A stretch of DNA of 64,000 nucleotides. Source: a virus. Where the stretch lies: positions 11,883-75,882 of the IMG/VR virus record IMGVR_UViG_3300025030_000081, one strand, 5' to 3'. A program made the translations under genes and the position numbers. The stretch's first letter is position 1; each line of letters opens with the position of its first letter. Below, in pieces: positions 17,940-36,219 of the stretch. The notes beneath the pieces are model-generated. The model searched no databases. It had not been told where the DNA came from and saw only the letters and a list, made by a program, of their open reading frames with translations.

Positions 17940-18440
17940 CTAAGGTTGGGGCTGTAAATTTCTCCCGTGATTAGGATGGTATCCATACCGTATTTCTGCA
18001 CTTTTTCTGGCATCGATAGCCTCCTGCTTATCACTAAAACGACCCAAGGGTATGGGCCTAGATTCATGCCAAATCATTGCTACCCATTTGTTACGAGTAA
18101 CTGACCAAGATACACCTACAACCCCTGATTTATTATTTTTTTGAATAGTACAGTTGCGATTGTTGTCTGTCATGGAAGCATCAAACAGATTTCCCCATTT
18201 ATTATTTAATCTGTTATGATCATCGTGGTCCACATATCTGGGCAATACTCCAGTTTTCATCAAGTAAATGGCTCGATGTGTTTTTAAAACTTTGCCTTTA
18301 AAACCGAAGTATCTGTATCCATCAGAACTGACATAGCCAGCTTCTTCTCCGATTTTACATTTACCTGATTGTTTTTTCCAGATGAGCTTTCCTGTTATTT
18401 CATCGTAATGAAAGTACTCATGTAACTCGGTGCTTGTCAT
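17940..18440 (-). CDS. Free-standing HNH-AP2 homing endonuclease splitting the DNA polymerase
   Basis: HRAIY..VDHDDHNRLNNKWGNL; NKSGVVGV..W.A.I...LGRF AP2-like domain; GGAG RBS at ATG 18440; AT-rich. Confidence 0.9.
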   Translation of the reverse strand: MTSTELHEYFHYDEITGKLIWKKQSGKCKIGEEAGYVSSDGYRYFGFKGKVLKTHRAIYLMKTGVLPRYVDHDDHNRLNNKWGNLFDASMTDNNRNCTIQKNNKSGVVGVSWSVTRNKWVAMIWHESRPIPLGRFSDKQEAIDARKSAEIRYGYHPNHGRNLQPQP

Positions 18441-20475
18441 AGTATTCTCCCATAGGGCGTTGATTACCGTCAGGGCATAGTACCATCGTATCCGCAGTAA
18501 GTATATGGGTTTTTCCATCAACAGTTACTTTAAATTTTCGACCACTGTTTACTGCTTGTTGTAAATCCGGCATGGTATCTTTAAAGTAACTATAGGCGCG
18601 GATGGAGTGGCCGTCGAAACCGTCGAGGTAGACCTTCATCTTGTTCGGATCCCTGGTGGTCAGGGCTGAGACCATATCCTCCAGGGAATTGAAATCAGCG
18701 CCGCCGAAGAGCCATCCGGCGATGCAGCCGAAGCAAGTTTTAATCAGCTCCCCCCAAGTGGATTTTGCAGGGATGTTGGTTAGGTTGGGGTTGGAACTGG
18801 ACAGGCGTCCGGATACGGTCCCACCCAGGTTGAAGTTTCCATAGAGGCGCCAGCTGCTATCCGGCATCTGTACGGCCTTCTCGAAGGCAGGGATGAACGA
18901 AGTCAGGATCTTGTCCACTTGAGCCAAACCGATCAGGGATTCGATGATCTCCAGGATGTCCTGATTCTGGGTCTGGTGCAGCAGTTTCTCCAGGGTGTCC
19001 CCGCCGGTTGCCGGCTGACCGGTATCGGTGGTATCCAGGACCGGTAATCCCAGGTAGGTGTAGAGCAGGTTGGCTACCTGTTGGCCGCTGTTCGGGTTGA
19101 ACTCCAGACGGGCCACCCTCGGGTCGTCCATGTCGAAGACTTTCTTCTTGGCGGCCGCGGTGAACTCGGCGCATTTCTGAGCCTTCACTTCCAACTGGAA
19201 TTCCCGGATCAGTTGGGAGTTGTCGAGCTTGGCCTTGTACCCATCACTCAGCGTAGTCAGGGCTTGCTTGACTCTGGCCACCTCATCCGGGAAGATCGGC
19301 ATGCCGGACAGCTCGGTCTGCAGCAGGGTGATCAGGGAAGGCTTGAACAGCTCCTCGTAGATCCCCATCTGGTTGCTGCTGATCATGCGCGTGTAGTACT
19401 TGTGGTAGACGTACCAGGTGCCCAGGGTGTCCTTGCCGTTGTACTCCAGCAGGCGGGGCAGCTCGATCTTGTCGGTATCCTCGATGTTCTCCTCGGCGTA
19501 ATCGCCCAGGTAATCCGCGGCGAGCACCTTGAGTTTCAGGACGTTTTCCACAGCGTTGTTGGTGGCGAGGTACGTGATCAGCTTGGTGTCGTCGAAGTTC
19601 CTGGTCAGGATCTGGATCCCCTGGATCATACCCCGGTAGTCCTGGAGGTCGGTCATCCAGAGCTCATAAACCAGAACCTTGAAGTCGTAGCCGGCGTTGT
19701 GTGCGATCAGTCTGCCCCGGTAGTTCTCGAAGAAAACCTTGAGCATGTTCTTTACGTAGCTGCCGAACGATTGGGTGAAGACGGTGGTTACGTCTTCTGG
19801 AAAAGAGCCGCGGTCCACCGGGATCGAAATGAAGTTGTGCTGGTCCCAGGCGAAGGCAATGGTGGCGATCCCGCAGTTCCAGAATTCCAGACTGCGGCTC
19901 TCGATGTCGACCGTCAGCGCAGGCTTGGTGTGGAGAAATTCCAGGGCATCGGAGATCTCCGCCAGCGTCATCGGGTACCGGGCGGAATGGATGACGTTGG
20001 TTCCCGGGGCGACGTACGCTCCCGACAGGTGCTGCTTCAGATAGGCCAGAGCGGTGTCGACTTCTTTCGCGGTATGCGGGTTGTACTTGGCCGCGTTGTA
20101 GTTGGGCGCGTAGAAGACGTCGAAAGCGTCCTCGTACCCGGTGAGGCTGGATTTGACTGCGTATCCGATGTAGTTGGTGGCTGCCTTCTGCTTGCCGGTG
20201 AGGTACTTGAAGTACTTCGCGTCGGTCACCAGGATGGTGCCGATGCACAGCGACTTGACCGAATGGAGCAGCGTCTGGAGATGCTCCTTGGCCAGCGCTG
20301 CCTGGCATTTATCGTTGTCGTCGTACCAGAGGCTGTACGCTATGAACCCGGCCGGGTTGGCGCCGATCGGGTCGATGTAGGCCGACTTGATCTTTCCGCT
20401 GTTGAAGCTGGTTTCCTTGACGAGGATGGCGACCGATGCTGAAGCGGGGTCAGCCCCGTAAGTGGCGTGCTGCAT
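18418..20475 (-). CDS. Family A DNA polymerase (N4 gp39-like), N-terminal fragment with 3'-5' exonuclease and motif A
   Basis: TVDIES, AHNAGYD, YNGKD exonuclease motifs; GTVSGRLSSSNPNL; GADFNSLED motif A. Confidence 0.92.
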   Translation of the reverse strand: MQHATYGADPASASVAILVKETSFNSGKIKSAYIDPIGANPAGFIAYSLWYDDNDKCQAALAKEHLQTLLHSVKSLCIGTILVTDAKYFKYLTGKQKAATNYIGYAVKSSLTGYEDAFDVFYAPNYNAAKYNPHTAKEVDTALAYLKQHLSGAYVAPGTNVIHSARYPMTLAEISDALEFLHTKPALTVDIESRSLEFWNCGIATIAFAWDQHNFISIPVDRGSFPEDVTTVFTQSFGSYVKNMLKVFFENYRGRLIAHNAGYDFKVLVYELWMTDLQDYRGMIQGIQILTRNFDDTKLITYLATNNAVENVLKLKVLAADYLGDYAEENIEDTDKIELPRLLEYNGKDTLGTWYVYHKYYTRMISSNQMGIYEELFKPSLITLLQTELSGMPIFPDEVARVKQALTTLSDGYKAKLDNSQLIREFQLEVKAQKCAEFTAAAKKKVFDMDDPRVARLEFNPNSGQQVANLLYTYLGLPVLDTTDTGQPATGGDTLEKLLHQTQNQDILEIIESLIGLAQVDKILTSFIPAFEKAVQMPDSSWRLYGNFNLGGTVSGRLSSSNPNLTNIPAKSTWGELIKTCFGCIAGWLFGGADFNSLEDMVSALTTRDPNKMKVYLDGFDGHSIRAYSYFKDTMPDLQQAVNSGRKFKVTVDGKTHILTADTMVLCPDGNQRPMGEYYDKHRVT

Positions 20476-20729: not shown

Positions 20730-20930
20730 TTATTTACGTTTTGATGCTTGCCAAGCTTCATCCAGAATCTCCTCCGTCGGGTTGAAGCTGTCGACGTTGT
20801 CCGCAGCCCAGAGAATGTACCCGGGATCTTCCTCGAGAACCTCCGTGATTGATTCGTGCTTATGCTTGCCGAAAGGGAAGACGTAATCGTAGTTATGCTT
20901 CAGTAGATCACCTATGGTCGTCATGTGCAT
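20730..20930 (-). CDS. Small FGK(H/Y)K-motif protein (DUF3820/ExoX C-terminal-like)
   Basis: FPFGKHK..I.EV...DPGYI.W motif. Confidence 0.7.
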   Translation of the reverse strand: MHMTTIGDLLKHNYDYVFPFGKHKHESITEVLEEDPGYILWAADNVDSFNPTEEILDEAWQASKRK

Positions 20931-21115
20931 CCTTTACGGGCTTTCCACCCATTCGCTGGTTTGCTGGCTCTAAGTCGCCAGGTACTTTGCCCGTCCCCTC
21001 AACGCAGTCTGCACCGCCTCGATCTCAATAATCTTCTGATGAGGGTCCTGTTGTTCCAGGTACGCCTTGCGGCTCCGCATGTCCCCGTGGGCTGTTATCG
21101 ACATGCGAATTTTTA

Positions 21116-21575
21116 TGGTAGCCACAGACTATTGCCACCTGTCTTAACCGACCGGGATTCGGGCAGGCTGGCTCAATGGTGTGCTGGCACTCTGCATTAC
21201 GCGCGGGCTTGTGACCGCCGTCGGCTGCATTTCCTCCCGTGGTGTGGCATTCCAGGCCGGTGTTTTGGTCGCTGTCCTAACGAGTCCTTGGGCGACTCTT
21301 CCACGGGGCTAGTCAGAGGTTGTCCCCAGCGTGAAGGCTGTGCCAACTTGACCCCAAATTGGTGCCGGCTTCCCACCGGCTTGAGGATTCGCTGCTTTTA
21401 GTATGAAGGTGATCTGCATCCTTAATATTGCACCTTGAATTGCCAGTCTCTCCCGGCTGTCGCGCCACTTTAGCGTATAGCATCGGTTCCAGCACTCATG
21501 TCACCGAAAACGGGAGTTGCCGTCTCTCCGGCTGTCACCCCTCATACAGATCTTGGCGAGGTTACCGTGAGGCGA
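21116..21575 (-). ncRNA. Array of putative structured non-coding RNA modules
   Basis: No convincing ORF; two copies of G(U/C)GACA-GCCGG(G)AGAGAC(U)GGCAA; several multi-helix units ending in ACCA. Confidence 0.5.
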
Positions 21576-21578
21576 AGG

Positions 21579-22007
21579 TTACTCTTTGCCCAGGTTCTCG
21601 ATCTGTCTCCGGCAGGACTCCAGGACGTCGTACGCCCTGTCCGGGCTGACCAGATCCACCAGGCCGATGGCCATGCGGAGTTTGTAGTCGAACTCATCCT
21701 GTTTTTTCTGCAGTTCAACGGCGCGTGTCGTCATCGAGTCGTGGACCAGTTGATTCAAGGTGGCCCCGAACGTTCCGTTGAATTCGTCGATTGCCTCGTT
21801 CAGCTTGTTTCGCAGGTCGACGAGCCCTTCTTCGAGGTTGTTGATCCGGGTGGCTGCCAGGATGAGCGATCTGTTGTTTGATTCCTGGATGATGGCCTTT
21901 GTCGTTTTCACCGGAAAGACCTGGTCGAGTTTAACCCGGTGCCGGTCGCTGAACACACCGACGTGCCGGTGAACGAATGTCCTCTGTTCCTCTGTGCAGG
22001 GCGCCAT
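21579..22007 (-). CDS. Hypothetical coiled-coil protein
   Basis: ORF with host-like codon usage, operonic. Confidence 0.6.
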   Translation of the reverse strand: MAPCTEEQRTFVHRHVGVFSDRHRVKLDQVFPVKTTKAIIQESNNRSLILAATRINNLEEGLVDLRNKLNEAIDEFNGTFGATLNQLVHDSMTTRAVELQKKQDEFDYKLRMAIGLVDLVSPDRAYDVLESCRRQIENLGKE

Positions 22008-22008
22008 G

Positions 22009-22173
22009 TTACAGGGCCACCGACAGACCGCGAAACGCCTTCAGTTCCTTGGCGATCTCCAGGGATGTTTTGCGCGCCCGGGTGCCGGCTGCCTTGTTGC
22101 CGTTCAGCTGCTTGGCCGAATCCGTTTTGAACTCTTCCATCAGCTTGCTAATCTTTTCCAGATGCTGTTCCAT
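22009..22173 (-). CDS. Histone H1-like Hc1-family protein, 54 aa (not in ORF track)
   Basis: AGGAGG RBS; MEQHLEKISKLMEEFKTDSAKQLNGNKAAGTRARKTSLEIAKELKAFRGLSVAL contains the GNKAAGTRARK Hc1 signature. Confidence 0.85.
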   Translation of the reverse strand: MEQHLEKISKLMEEFKTDSAKQLNGNKAAGTRARKTSLEIAKELKAFRGLSVAL

Positions 22174-34714: not shown

Positions 34715-34970
34715 ATCGGCTCCTAGGGTATCTAAAGTTAAACTTTCGTGACTATCTGTCATATCACAGTTAGCTGTAGGAATTCACCCGAAATCGAGTG
34801 TTAGGTGTCATGTTGGAGGTATGCACTTTTCGTGATTTTTGAAAAGTTACCATGCATGTTTTGGGTATTTTTCACAGTGCCATTTTCAACCCGTAAAAAT
34901 GCACAAAAGCAGCCGGAGGCTGCCCTGTATCGTGGAGGATAAAACAGCTAAGCGAAGTTAACTTTTAGGT

Positions 34971-35006
34971 AAACAAAAAACTGCCTACCCGGTTAGGGGT
35001 AGGCAT
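34971..35006 (-). terminator. Intrinsic terminator after RNAP2
   Basis: Minus strand TGCCTACCC-ctaacc-GGGTAGGCA then GTTTTTT. Confidence 0.75.
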
Positions 35007-35010
35007 GTGG

Positions 35011-36219
35011 TTATGAGAGGAAGTAGTCGGCTTCCATGATGTGGTCGCCCAGATCGTCGGACAGTTTGGCGTAGTTGTAGCGGCGGTCGTTCCTGAGCTC
35101 CCTGATGATCTGGACGCCGACGTTGCTGTCGGCCAGCTCCGCCAGGATGTCCCGGTAGACCTCCCGCATCTCGTTGGCGTAGTTGGGGTGGCACTTGAAT
35201 GCATCGTGGATGGTGAGGACCGGGAAGCTTGGTCTGGTGAGGGTTTCCTGGATCAAGGAAAGGAGCTCTTCAAGGTAACCAACGGTGAACTGACTGATGT
35301 TCTCCGGGTTGACGATCTCGACACCGCGCAGGCTGAGGAAGCCGTGGTTCGCTGCGTTGATCTCGAAGGGGTGGGTGGGTTCGGTAACCCGGGAGGTGAG
35401 TTTCTGATACTGGATCAATGCGGCTACGTCCTCGAGGTGATCCCGGTCGTAGTTGCAGCGCCTGACGGTCTCCCTGACGAGGAAGCCGTCAACCGAGTGG
35501 GTGGCATTGGCGGCCACTGCCAAGCCGTACTCGGAGCCGATGTTCTCCTCGTAGACGTAGGTGAGGGTGGCGTGATCCAGCTCGTCGATCTCGATCTTGG
35601 ACTTCATCTTCTGAAGCACCGGTACCTTCGCCTGATAGCCGTCAGGCAGAGTGTTGTGGTGGAAGAGGGCATTGGGCTGCCATGAGGCCAAGAGCTCCTG
35701 CATGAGGAAGCAGGCGCCCGGAGCGACCATTTCCTGAGCCTGATAGAAGGCGTAGAGCTCAGGGGACTCGTCTCCGAAGATCCGCTTGGGAGTAGCCACG
35801 CTCCCATAGTAGTGAGTCATCGTCGCGGATTTGGCGTCCGATCTCGGCACCACCACCTCGCTCGGCAAGAGCTCGTTCATGGCTGCCGTGCACTGGCCGT
35901 ACATGTCCATGCGCTTCTTACCGGTGACCCCGGTGTTGGCGCTGGTCACCGGGCAGCCGGTGAGGATACCCAGTATCGAGATCCCCGAGGCGCAGGCGTC
36001 CAGCTCAACCAGAAAGCCAGAAGGTCTCCCGGCCAGAGCGTCCTCCAGAGCCAGCACACCGGCAAGGAACTGGGCGGGCTTCTCGGCCTGAGCCACCTTG
36101 GAACGCAGATCCTTGATCGAATCCACCCAAGCGATGCGCTGTCTGAAGCTCTTCTTGTCCAGCCCGTAGTTGTTGGCGATGTCGATCTTGATGTATTCAA
36201 GCGCTGAAAATTTCATCAT
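35011..36219 (-). CDS. N4-like RNA polymerase II subunit 2 (gp16-like)
   Basis: YIKIDIAN.YGLDK, LDACASG, R..AK...MT.YYGS, N..HSVDG, IHDAF motifs. Confidence 0.92.
   Translation of the reverse strand: MMKFSALEYIKIDIANNYGLDKKSFRQRIAWVDSIKDLRSKVAQAEKPAQFLAGVLALEDALAGRPSGFLVELDACASGISILGILTGCPVTSANTGVTGKKRMDMYGQCTAAMNELLPSEVVVPRSDAKSATMTHYYGSVATPKRIFGDESPELYAFYQAQEMVAPGACFLMQELLASWQPNALFHHNTLPDGYQAKVPVLQKMKSKIEIDELDHATLTYVYEENIGSEYGLAVAANATHSVDGFLVRETVRRCNYDRDHLEDVAALIQYQKLTSRVTEPTHPFEINAANHGFLSLRGVEIVNPENISQFTVGYLEELLSLIQETLTRPSFPVLTIHDAFKCHPNYANEMREVYRDILAELADSNVGVQIIRELRNDRRYNYAKLSDDLGDHIMEADYFLS

Follow-up and report, generated by a model that had tools for sequence, protein, structure and literature searches.

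What does a phage keep in more than 600 nucleotides (nt) of apparently non-coding DNA in the middle of its replication genes? The question is raised by the window analysed here, a 64-kb stretch covering bases 11883-75882 of a 75,882-bp IMG/VR virus record, which is rated 100% complete and was obtained from a groundwater sample. Within a minus-strand replication-gene operon of this window, upstream of the DNA polymerase gene, lies a gap without a convincing open reading frame (ORF). A preliminary description, made from the letters of the DNA, had read it as an array of small structured RNAs of about 460 nt and had proposed tRNA mimics, decoys for anticodon nucleases or processing signals. The lack of a convincing minus-strand ORF is real and the sequences quoted there are present; the length given covers the first 460 nt of the gap, which in full measures about 650 nt (Table 1). 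We consider it probable that the gap is a transcribed non-coding RNA island in the replication operon of an uncultured phage, that its exchangeable modules process or protect the message, and that it holds neither tRNAs nor decoys.

The gap is non-coding and contains no tRNA

Coding on either strand was ruled out. The ORFs within the gap, including one of 158 amino acids (aa) on the plus strand and one of 44/51 aa on the minus strand, have no Pfam match. Compared with its relatives, the gap carries indels of 1, 2 and 4 nt and its tblastx matches change frame; since these indels are not multiples of three and the frames jump, its conservation is of the non-coding kind. In the whole window ARAGORN found no tRNA or tmRNA, and RF00005 gave no match in a 1-kb search even at E values up to 10. 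The preliminary description had noted that no unit folds as a canonical cloverleaf, and both searches agree; no cloverleaf with an anticodon arm is present.

At the Rfam gathering level no family matched the window. The permissive search (1 kb, E up to 10) returned nothing but a twister ribozyme, and RAGATH, hammerhead, pistol, hatchet, HDV-like, group I intron, ROOL and GOLLD models were all unmatched. A group I intron, considered for the R/S-like GGUUAAGAC...AAUAGUC, was rejected, there being no space for P4-P6 and no Rfam match. Moreover, blastn of the gap against GenBank phages gave no match, and neither sigma-70-like promoters nor intrinsic terminators were predicted on its minus strand.

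Different sets of modules in related phages

Searches with the flanking proteins (the 66-aa ORF and the polymerase) yielded just two related contigs, here referred to as L002 and L004 (the latter being IMGVR_UViG_3300034077_000016). The 142-aa ORF on the other side of the gap had no relative, and a metagenome scan with the polymerase alignment gave a single distant match that was uninformative. L002 has a gap of 328 nt with a hairpin, a pseudoknot unit and part of the next unit, and its 66.9-kb record lacks both the twister and the 240-nt RNA of the window. In L004 the 5' part differs, and next come a hairpin and, immediately after it, the 240-nt RNA; the part of this contig examined, which ends about 500 nt upstream of the hairpin, contains no pseudoknot unit and no twister. 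The 240-nt RNA of L004 starts 8 nt past the end of the hairpin, and in the window this RNA comes after the twister; by this sequence comparison twister and hairpin occupy one slot. Twisters and hairpins of these types each occur alone in hundreds of unrelated phages. Because the relatives keep different subsets of the modules, we regard the island as an assembly of exchangeable parts and not as one large RNA. The comparison upholds the earlier view of several separate, non-coding structured RNA units on the minus strand, and the covariation among homologues that had been named as a check is present as compensatory changes in several modules.

A minimal twister ribozyme

One of the modules belongs to a known class. 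The Rfam twister-P1 model matched positions 21184-21236 with 33.8 bits (E 2.7e-5), the single credible match of the permissive scan, at a score below the gathering score of 67.2. The module has helices P2 (UGCA/UGCA) and P4 (GCGG/CCGC), a P1 of just GG/CC, and both pseudoknots, T1 (CAC/GUG) and T2 (GC/GC). As compared with RF03160 and 38 phage twisters, the conserved core letters are present, that is, the A after the cut, GCC, GGUC.CAAGCCCG, UAA and GAG.G. The loop reads GUCACAAGCC and the 3' strand GAGUG, so that CAC/GUG replaces the usual CCC/GGG in T1. The unit list of the preliminary description has its sequences in the right places and lacks this ribozyme.

We then scanned IMG/VR with the pattern GGTCACAAGCCCG...TAA and obtained matches in more than 116 contigs, of which many carry two to four copies. 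The non-redundant cores that show a recognisable type-P1 P2 were sorted by the middle base of T1. Where this base is A, GAGUG follows in 74 cases and GAGGG in none; GAGGG stands in the two CCC cores, and GAGCG in one CGC core. The T1 pseudoknot covaries in this set, of which the 5' half is fixed by the search pattern. The window module was aligned with 38 phage twisters lacking P3. In these 39 sequences 89.6% of the cells are paired over 11 pairs, 108 cells are doubly changed, and the covariation score is 0.348, a value reached by 0 of 500 shuffles (0.105). Pairing in P2 and P4 amounts to 99.4% across the alignment, and the window module agrees exactly with P2, P4, T1 and T2. Another contig (L018, IMGVR_UViG_3300031277_000002) has an identical 44-nt core, and no second twister was found elsewhere in this genome. 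None of the type-P1 copies in the 14 phage twister loci scanned reached the gathering cut-off; because they score below 67 bits despite strong covariation, the Rfam threshold seems to miss the phage type-P1 subclass. As judged from these comparisons, the window module is a genuine minimal twister and a member of a phage-wide CAC/GUG subclass, with self-cleavage predicted. In the IMG/VR loci L012-L127, the usual order is a stable hairpin, the type-P1 twister, and then a ribosome-binding site with a start codon.

A widespread UGACA hairpin

The two repeats that the preliminary description had pointed out belong to a motif of 22 nt, U-GACA-GCCGG-GARAGA-CCGGC-A(CC). Both have the leader, the stem of 4-5 bp, the loop and the 3' A. 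A covariance model, R1, built from 30 hairpin copies of other phages, found exactly these two sites in the window, where no further good copy exists at 3 mismatches. Just before copy 2 there is a small hairpin ending in GGCGC. Compared with copy 2, the L002 copy keeps its stem through two double changes (G-C to U-A and C-G to U-A); the L004 copy is GAUGACAGCCGGGAAAGACCGGCC.

A scan of IMG/VR for GACAGCCGGGARAGAC gave exact copies in at least 117 viral contigs, and CGGC, which the pattern does not demand, completes the stem in 116 of the 120 matches listed. Among one-genome-per-species bacteria, a 20-mer scan matched at least 120 contigs, mostly with one to three copies each. The bacterial matches listed include Alpha-, Beta- and Gammaproteobacteria, Cyanobacteria, Firmicutes, Bacteroidota, Planctomycetota, Chloroflexota, Spirochaetes, Actinobacteria, Verrucomicrobia, Armatimonadota, Melainabacteria and a Paceibacterota genome. 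The hairpin is rare in E. coli (9 of 5,426 genomes). GenBank phages with exact copies are the lambdoid mEp390, the T1-like ESP2949-1, Acinetobacter phage Alexa, Klebsiella phage P7641, Pseudomonas phage Medea1 and the N4-like Stenotrophomonas phage Pokken, and all of their copies are intergenic and unannotated.

An alignment of 123 copies shows 98% pairing in the stem and 18 doubly changed cells, and 0 of 500 shuffles scored as high. On the gene-sense strand there are 8 G-U pairs as against 2 C-A/A-C pairs, and 136 of 184 neighbouring downstream long ORFs are co-oriented with the hairpin; because of this wobble bias and the co-oriented ORFs, we conclude that the hairpin works as RNA. The two window repeats are, by their sequence, copies of a hairpin widespread in phages and prophages of most bacterial phyla, which acts on the RNA strand. 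No family of Rfam 15 covers it, and full-text literature searches by sequence and by topic found no paper on it.

A second and rarer type, UCAA-GCCGG-(loop)-CCGGC-ACCAAU, shares stem and ACC tail with the UGACA motif and differs from it in leader and loop. It occurs at L372:2657-2684, L375:3402-3429 and in the window at 21384-21358; a pattern scan for UCAA-GCCGG...CCGGC-ACCAAU gave just 2-3 extra non-coding matches (L372 and L375). The L372 copy directly precedes a terminator-like hairpin.

Neighbourhood of the hairpin

Outside the 22 nt the flanks are nearly free of information, save for a preference for A, then C or A, then C after the stem. ACC follows 50 of 217 copies (23%), compared with 1.6% in the background. 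Among the 217 non-redundant copies, 27 have a same-strand tRNA (ARAGORN) starting 3-10 nt after the hairpin, and none has one starting at 11-37 nt. In one locus (L141:4650-6260, IMGVR_UViG_3300032007_000179) each of four consecutive tRNAs is preceded at 5-7 nt by a copy of its own, and a fifth copy stands before a protein gene. In Pokken a copy opens the 410-nt spacer ahead of a tRNA cluster. About one fifth of the copies are followed after 20-60 nt by a ribosome-binding site and start codon, and it is common to find two to five copies grouped within 1 kb. In Mu-like prophages the hairpin lies between the major head gene gpT and gp36; Mu-gpT-DE was rejected there, since the copy downstream of gpT has no Rfam match. 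No protein family is present in more than 12% of 233 hairpin loci within 3.5 kb, and a dedicated phage partner protein is unlikely for this reason. Co-occurrence with the twister is not general: about 0.7 Mb of twister loci contained 1 hairpin, and 0.9 Mb of hairpin loci contained no twister.

Several loci with hairpin copies contain further elements. In Acinetobacter phage vB_AbaP_Alexa (MT375042.1, about 34914-35154; L247:1495-1600 and 1700-1735) 10 nt separate the hairpin from a candidate type-I hammerhead downstream of it, CCCAU-CUGACGAG-stem II-CGAAAC-stem III-GUC-AUGGG, whose core is complete by eye and which Rfam HH9 matches with 20.4 bits (E 0.01). Another 200 nt on there is a variant hairpin (GACAGCUUGGAAAGACAGC), and the 535-nt gap that follows the integrase gene holds all of these elements. 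Directly upstream of the hairpin, L004:426-516 and L262:263-378 (minus strand, a Gallionella metagenome-assembled genome) have in common a conserved element of about 90 nt (CCCUUAACGGCUG.CCU..UAGU.AGGG ... AGAAAUGCCGGU). Present in a phage relative and an unrelated bacterial genome, it may be another uncatalogued RNA. ORF-poor leaders of 650-780 nt follow a cI-like gene in mEp390 (L245:2000-2800) and Stx2a_WGPS2 (L376:1268-2045), and Klebsiella phage P7641 has a similar gap of 700 nt (L248:920-1640) with flanking genes named just "hypothetical". These three leaders have conserved modules in differing combinations and two hairpin copies, with no N gene annotated. In mEp390 an annotated 81-aa "gp36" overlaps a hairpin copy; it is not called in RefSeq E. 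coli prophages.

Lineage-specific folds and surrounding genes

The remaining modules were compared with L002 and L004 (Table 1). In the pseudoknot unit, AAGGUG (21436-21431) pairs with CACCUU (21411-21406) and the loop bases AGGAU (21422-21418) pair with AUCCU (21388-21384); the hairpin GCCGG-UGGGAAG-CCGGC (21380-21364) follows, with the tail ACCA. L002 has the equivalents AUGGG/CCCAU (two double changes), AAGG/CCUU and GCCGGG-UGAAAAG-CCUGGC-GCCAAU in the same places, so that RCCAAU is kept at the 3' tail. The preliminary description had given this 75-nt unit as tRNA-like; its pairings and its ACCA tail are there, and its nature is that of a pseudoknot plus hairpin instead.

The 240-nt RNA is 72% identical in nucleotides between window and L004, with frame-breaking indels, the polymerases being 65% identical in protein. 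Its RNAalifold consensus has 51 pairs kept in both sequences, 12 of them changed on both sides, in a structure derived from the same two sequences; with partners slid by 1-3 columns as a control, 0-1 doubly changed pairs were obtained. The unit AGCCA...UGGCU-ACCA described earlier was not confirmed, since the covariation backs GCCA (21172-21169) with UGGC (21137-21134) instead, and ACCA is absent in L004. At the 3' end the hairpin AUGGG-UGGAAAG-CCCGU (20952-20936) stands just before an AAAGG ribosome-binding site (20935-20931). The downstream gene in L004 is Hc1-like and differs from that in the window, and because of this difference the RNA is not tied to one gene. The IMG/VR pattern GGTTAAGACAG...GCAATAGTC matched the L004 contig alone. 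By the compensatory changes seen in the two available relatives, the pseudoknot unit and the 240-nt RNA are conserved folds.

Table 1. Coordinates of the RNA island and its predicted modules in the window
Feature	Positions	Strand	Description
ORF-free RNA island	20931..21578	-	648 nt, from the stop of the 142-aa ORF (21579-22007) to the start of the 66-aa ExoX-like_C ORF (20730-20930)
Hairpin copy 1	21519..21536	-	(U)GACA-GCCG-GAGAGA-CGGC-A with GGGG/CUCC flanks; model R1 at 21511-21544, 28.3 bits, E 4e-4
Hairpin copy 2	21442..21461	-	(C)GACA-GCCGG-GAGAGA-CUGGC-A, one G-U pair; model R1 at 21434-21469, 34.7 bits, E 9e-6
Pseudoknot + hairpin unit	21360..21436	-	direct reading of window and L002; RNAalifold
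Multi-hairpin unit	21266..21355	-	GGGGUC...GACC-A; weakest module
Minimal type-P1 twister ribozyme	21186..21234	-	predicted cut between 21232 and 21231; Rfam twister-P1
Multi-helix 240-nt RNA	20936..21172	-	common to window and L004

Among the genes around the island, all of them on the minus strand, are a Dda-like helicase, YopX, the two ORFs bordering the island, and the N-terminal part of a family-A DNA polymerase. The polymerase ORF (18418-20475) stops after 685 aa in the window and is a single ORF of 963 aa (L003:4001-6892) or 853 aa (L004:1109-3670) in relatives. A 54-aa ORF at 22009-22173 (minus strand) matches Pfam Hc1, a histone H1-like protein (E 1.4e-16), and its homologue in L004 sits between the RNA island and the polymerase gene.

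Possible function and alternative explanations

Among the roles named in the preliminary description, processing signals fit best, for one unit belongs to a self-cleaving ribozyme class and the hairpin stands 3-10 nt before tRNAs in other phages. The island would be transcribed together with the operon, and the long middle transcript would cut itself at the twister. The upstream message would thereby be released with a 2',3'-cyclic-phosphate end, and the remaining 5'-OH RNA would have the ribozyme at its start, followed by the 240-nt fold as leader of the ExoX-like and DNA polymerase genes. The hairpins may be punctuation or boundary elements ahead of structured RNAs; alternatively, they may be caps shielding processed ends from exonucleases. 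Their reader would most likely be a universal host enzyme, which is favoured because of the letter-perfect spread across phyla, the lack of a linked protein, the fixed place before tRNA 5' ends and the interchangeability with a ribozyme. RNase P is the leading candidate, which we name tentatively and by analogy, with the hairpin taken as an acceptor-stem-like microhelix; a first pair of G-C, a tail like A-C-C and the nearby tRNAs speak for it. Judged by eye, the hairpin may resemble CR-I/CR-V of RNase P RNA and the sarcin-ricin loop. In its most general form, the proposal that the UGACA hairpin is a universal "mini-tRNA" mark before tRNAs, ribozymes, structured RNAs and 5' untranslated regions, at which a host enzyme (most plausibly RNase P) would cut or dock and which a ribozyme could replace, is speculative, and we hold it with low confidence.

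A number of observations weigh against this reading of the island. The whole stretch is no more stable than shuffled sequence (minimum free energy z = +1.39), and because it is not unusually stable the case for structure is comparative and not thermodynamic. The covariation of the lineage-specific modules comes from sequence pairs, since only two related genomes were found, and from structures predicted on these same pairs, and the multi-hairpin unit has only short blocks in common with L002 (GCUGGG and AAGG..UUAGGA). The twister falls short of the Rfam cut-off, its closing helix P1 has 2 bp only, and the base before its cut is A, this base being U in 38 of 39 relatives. Flanking P1 is also missing in the two closest cores (L017 and L018), and the P1 of twister is reportedly dispensable in vitro. 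For RNase P, the 5-bp stem of the hairpin is short for a substrate, and the ACC tail is found in about a quarter of copies only. Transcription, cleavage and discrete products are all inferred, because the phage of the window is known from its sequence alone.

For the hairpin, the main rival is a boxB-like effect on RNA polymerase. The hairpins would be signals for anti-termination or polymerase modification, in the style of lambda boxB/nut or HK022 put, and would carry the polymerase past Rho-dependent termination in long untranslated regions, with the twister and the other folds as separate passengers. The 5-bp GC stem and purine-rich GNRA-like loop resemble boxB, and two copies lie in the ORF-poor leaders past cI and a putative pL in mEp390 and P7641 (with a variant in Stx2a_WGPS2), where N is not annotated. 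Hairpin copies also stand before untranslated arrays of tRNAs and non-coding RNAs, and RNA polymerase is as universal as the spread of the hairpin across phyla. However, one copy per tRNA at a fixed distance of 3-10 nt points to a role that is local and not processive, the flanks, with an information content of about zero, have no boxA-like partner, and N4-like phages carry the hairpin as well, yet their middle genes reportedly use a phage RNA polymerase. HK022 put as the identity of the hairpin was rejected; it differs in sequence and shape, and model R1 gives just a 12-bit chance match, inside HK022 cI. On balance we judge anti-termination improbable. An action of the element as DNA, as a promoter, an origin or priming site, or a recombination site, deserves much less credit still. 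TGACA does resemble a -35 hexamer, the GAC/GTC trinucleotides are like primase recognition sites, several copies clustered within 1 kb resemble iterons, and in some phages the hairpin lies 25-35 nt from the start of a divergent gene; but the compensatory stem changes and the wobble pairs confined to one strand speak for RNA, and copies lie within operons and, in mEp390, 390 nt downstream of the putative pL promoter. A sigma-70 promoter with TGACA as -35 was rejected, since no -10 element follows, the tRNA start is too close for a sigma-70 start site, and no promoter-like site is predicted in the gap of the window.

The two remaining explanations concern the units themselves. As tRNA mimics or acceptor-end decoys, they would soak up host nucleases or toxins that attack tRNA, and immunity systems that cut tRNA tails do exist (PMC12851939). 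A hairpin with an A-C-C tail resembles an acceptor microhelix, and GCCGG-UGGGAAG-CCGGC-ACCA has the geometry of a T-arm, with a 5-bp stem and a 7-nt loop. ACCA ends are indeed present at 21363-21360, 21270-21266 (GACC-A) and 21119-21116. However, no unit has a cloverleaf or an anticodon-like arm, the T-loop UUC is missing from the supposed T-arm-like loops (UGGRAAG), and two of the three ACCA ends are unconserved in the relatives; tRNA mimicry is unsupported because these ends are mostly not conserved. Among the hairpins, the base after ACC is A in only 11 of 50 cases. Decoys would also require a free 3' end, of which there is no indication, and the fixed place before real tRNAs would be left unexplained, so that this explanation appears very improbable. 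Finally, the whole 650 nt could be one large structured RNA in the manner of ROOL or GOLLD, being long, ORF-free, helix-rich and in a phage. We find this hardly credible, for L002 keeps the hairpin and the pseudoknot unit, the examined part of L004 keeps the hairpin and the 240-nt RNA, twister and hairpin are each found alone in so many unrelated phages, and no large RNA in Rfam matches. An assembly of exchangeable processing modules agrees better with these data.

Since non-coding phage islands bearing ribozymes are known, the twister is by itself nothing unusual. The hairpin motif seems to be missing from Rfam 15 and from the searchable literature, and it is the part that deserves further study. 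It is kept letter for letter in phages and prophages of Proteobacteria, Firmicutes, Bacteroidota, Cyanobacteria and candidate phyla radiation (CPR) bacteria, and such broad conservation without a linked protein gene suggests that it engages a universal host machine or has an intrinsic RNA activity. Should RNase P or some other core enzyme recognise it, the hairpin would be a compact, portable RNA-processing signal and would open a new way of studying the maturation of tRNA arrays and untranslated RNAs in phages. The window itself illustrates how such islands are built by module shuffling, with twister and hairpin in the same slot in two related phages.

Comparison with known systems

The twister class was reportedly described by Roth et al. 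in 2014, and the RAGATH motifs, that is, ribozyme-associated intergenic RNA, are said to come from Weinberg et al. in 2015. Compared with type-P1 twister (RF03160, clan CL00120), the window module has the same P2, P4, pseudoknots and core nucleotides, and differs in having no P3, a 2-bp P1, an A before the cut, CAC/GUG in T1 and a score under the cut-off. Like RAGATH arrays and ribozyme-punctuated phage operons, the island places a self-cleaving ribozyme class beside conserved folds in an intergenic stretch of a phage; unlike them, its companion modules match no RAGATH or other Rfam family, and it has a single twister and not one per gene junction. RAGATH-28 and Hammerhead_II of Rfam were found near other phage twisters.

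The T4 tRNA cluster with its species 1 and 2 stable RNAs is similar in that small stable phage RNAs are processed together with tRNAs from one transcript, whereas the window has no tRNA and no sequence relation to it. With lambda boxB/nut the hairpin has in common a 5-bp GC stem, a purine-rich loop and, in some lambdoid phages, a place near the start of an early operon; it differs in its six-base loop, in lacking boxA and an N-like partner gene, and in occurring in non-lambdoid phages of many phyla. In a "works like" sense only, it may be compared with mitochondrial tRNA punctuation, the 4.5S RNA precursor and acceptor-T-stem minihelices, which likewise place a compact acceptor-like helix with an RCC tail between functional RNAs. 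Compared with hairpin substrates of RNase P, its putative cleavage would involve a 5-bp stem with a fixed GARAGA loop and UGACA leader, and the hairpin often stands directly before a real tRNA, which is itself an RNase P site.

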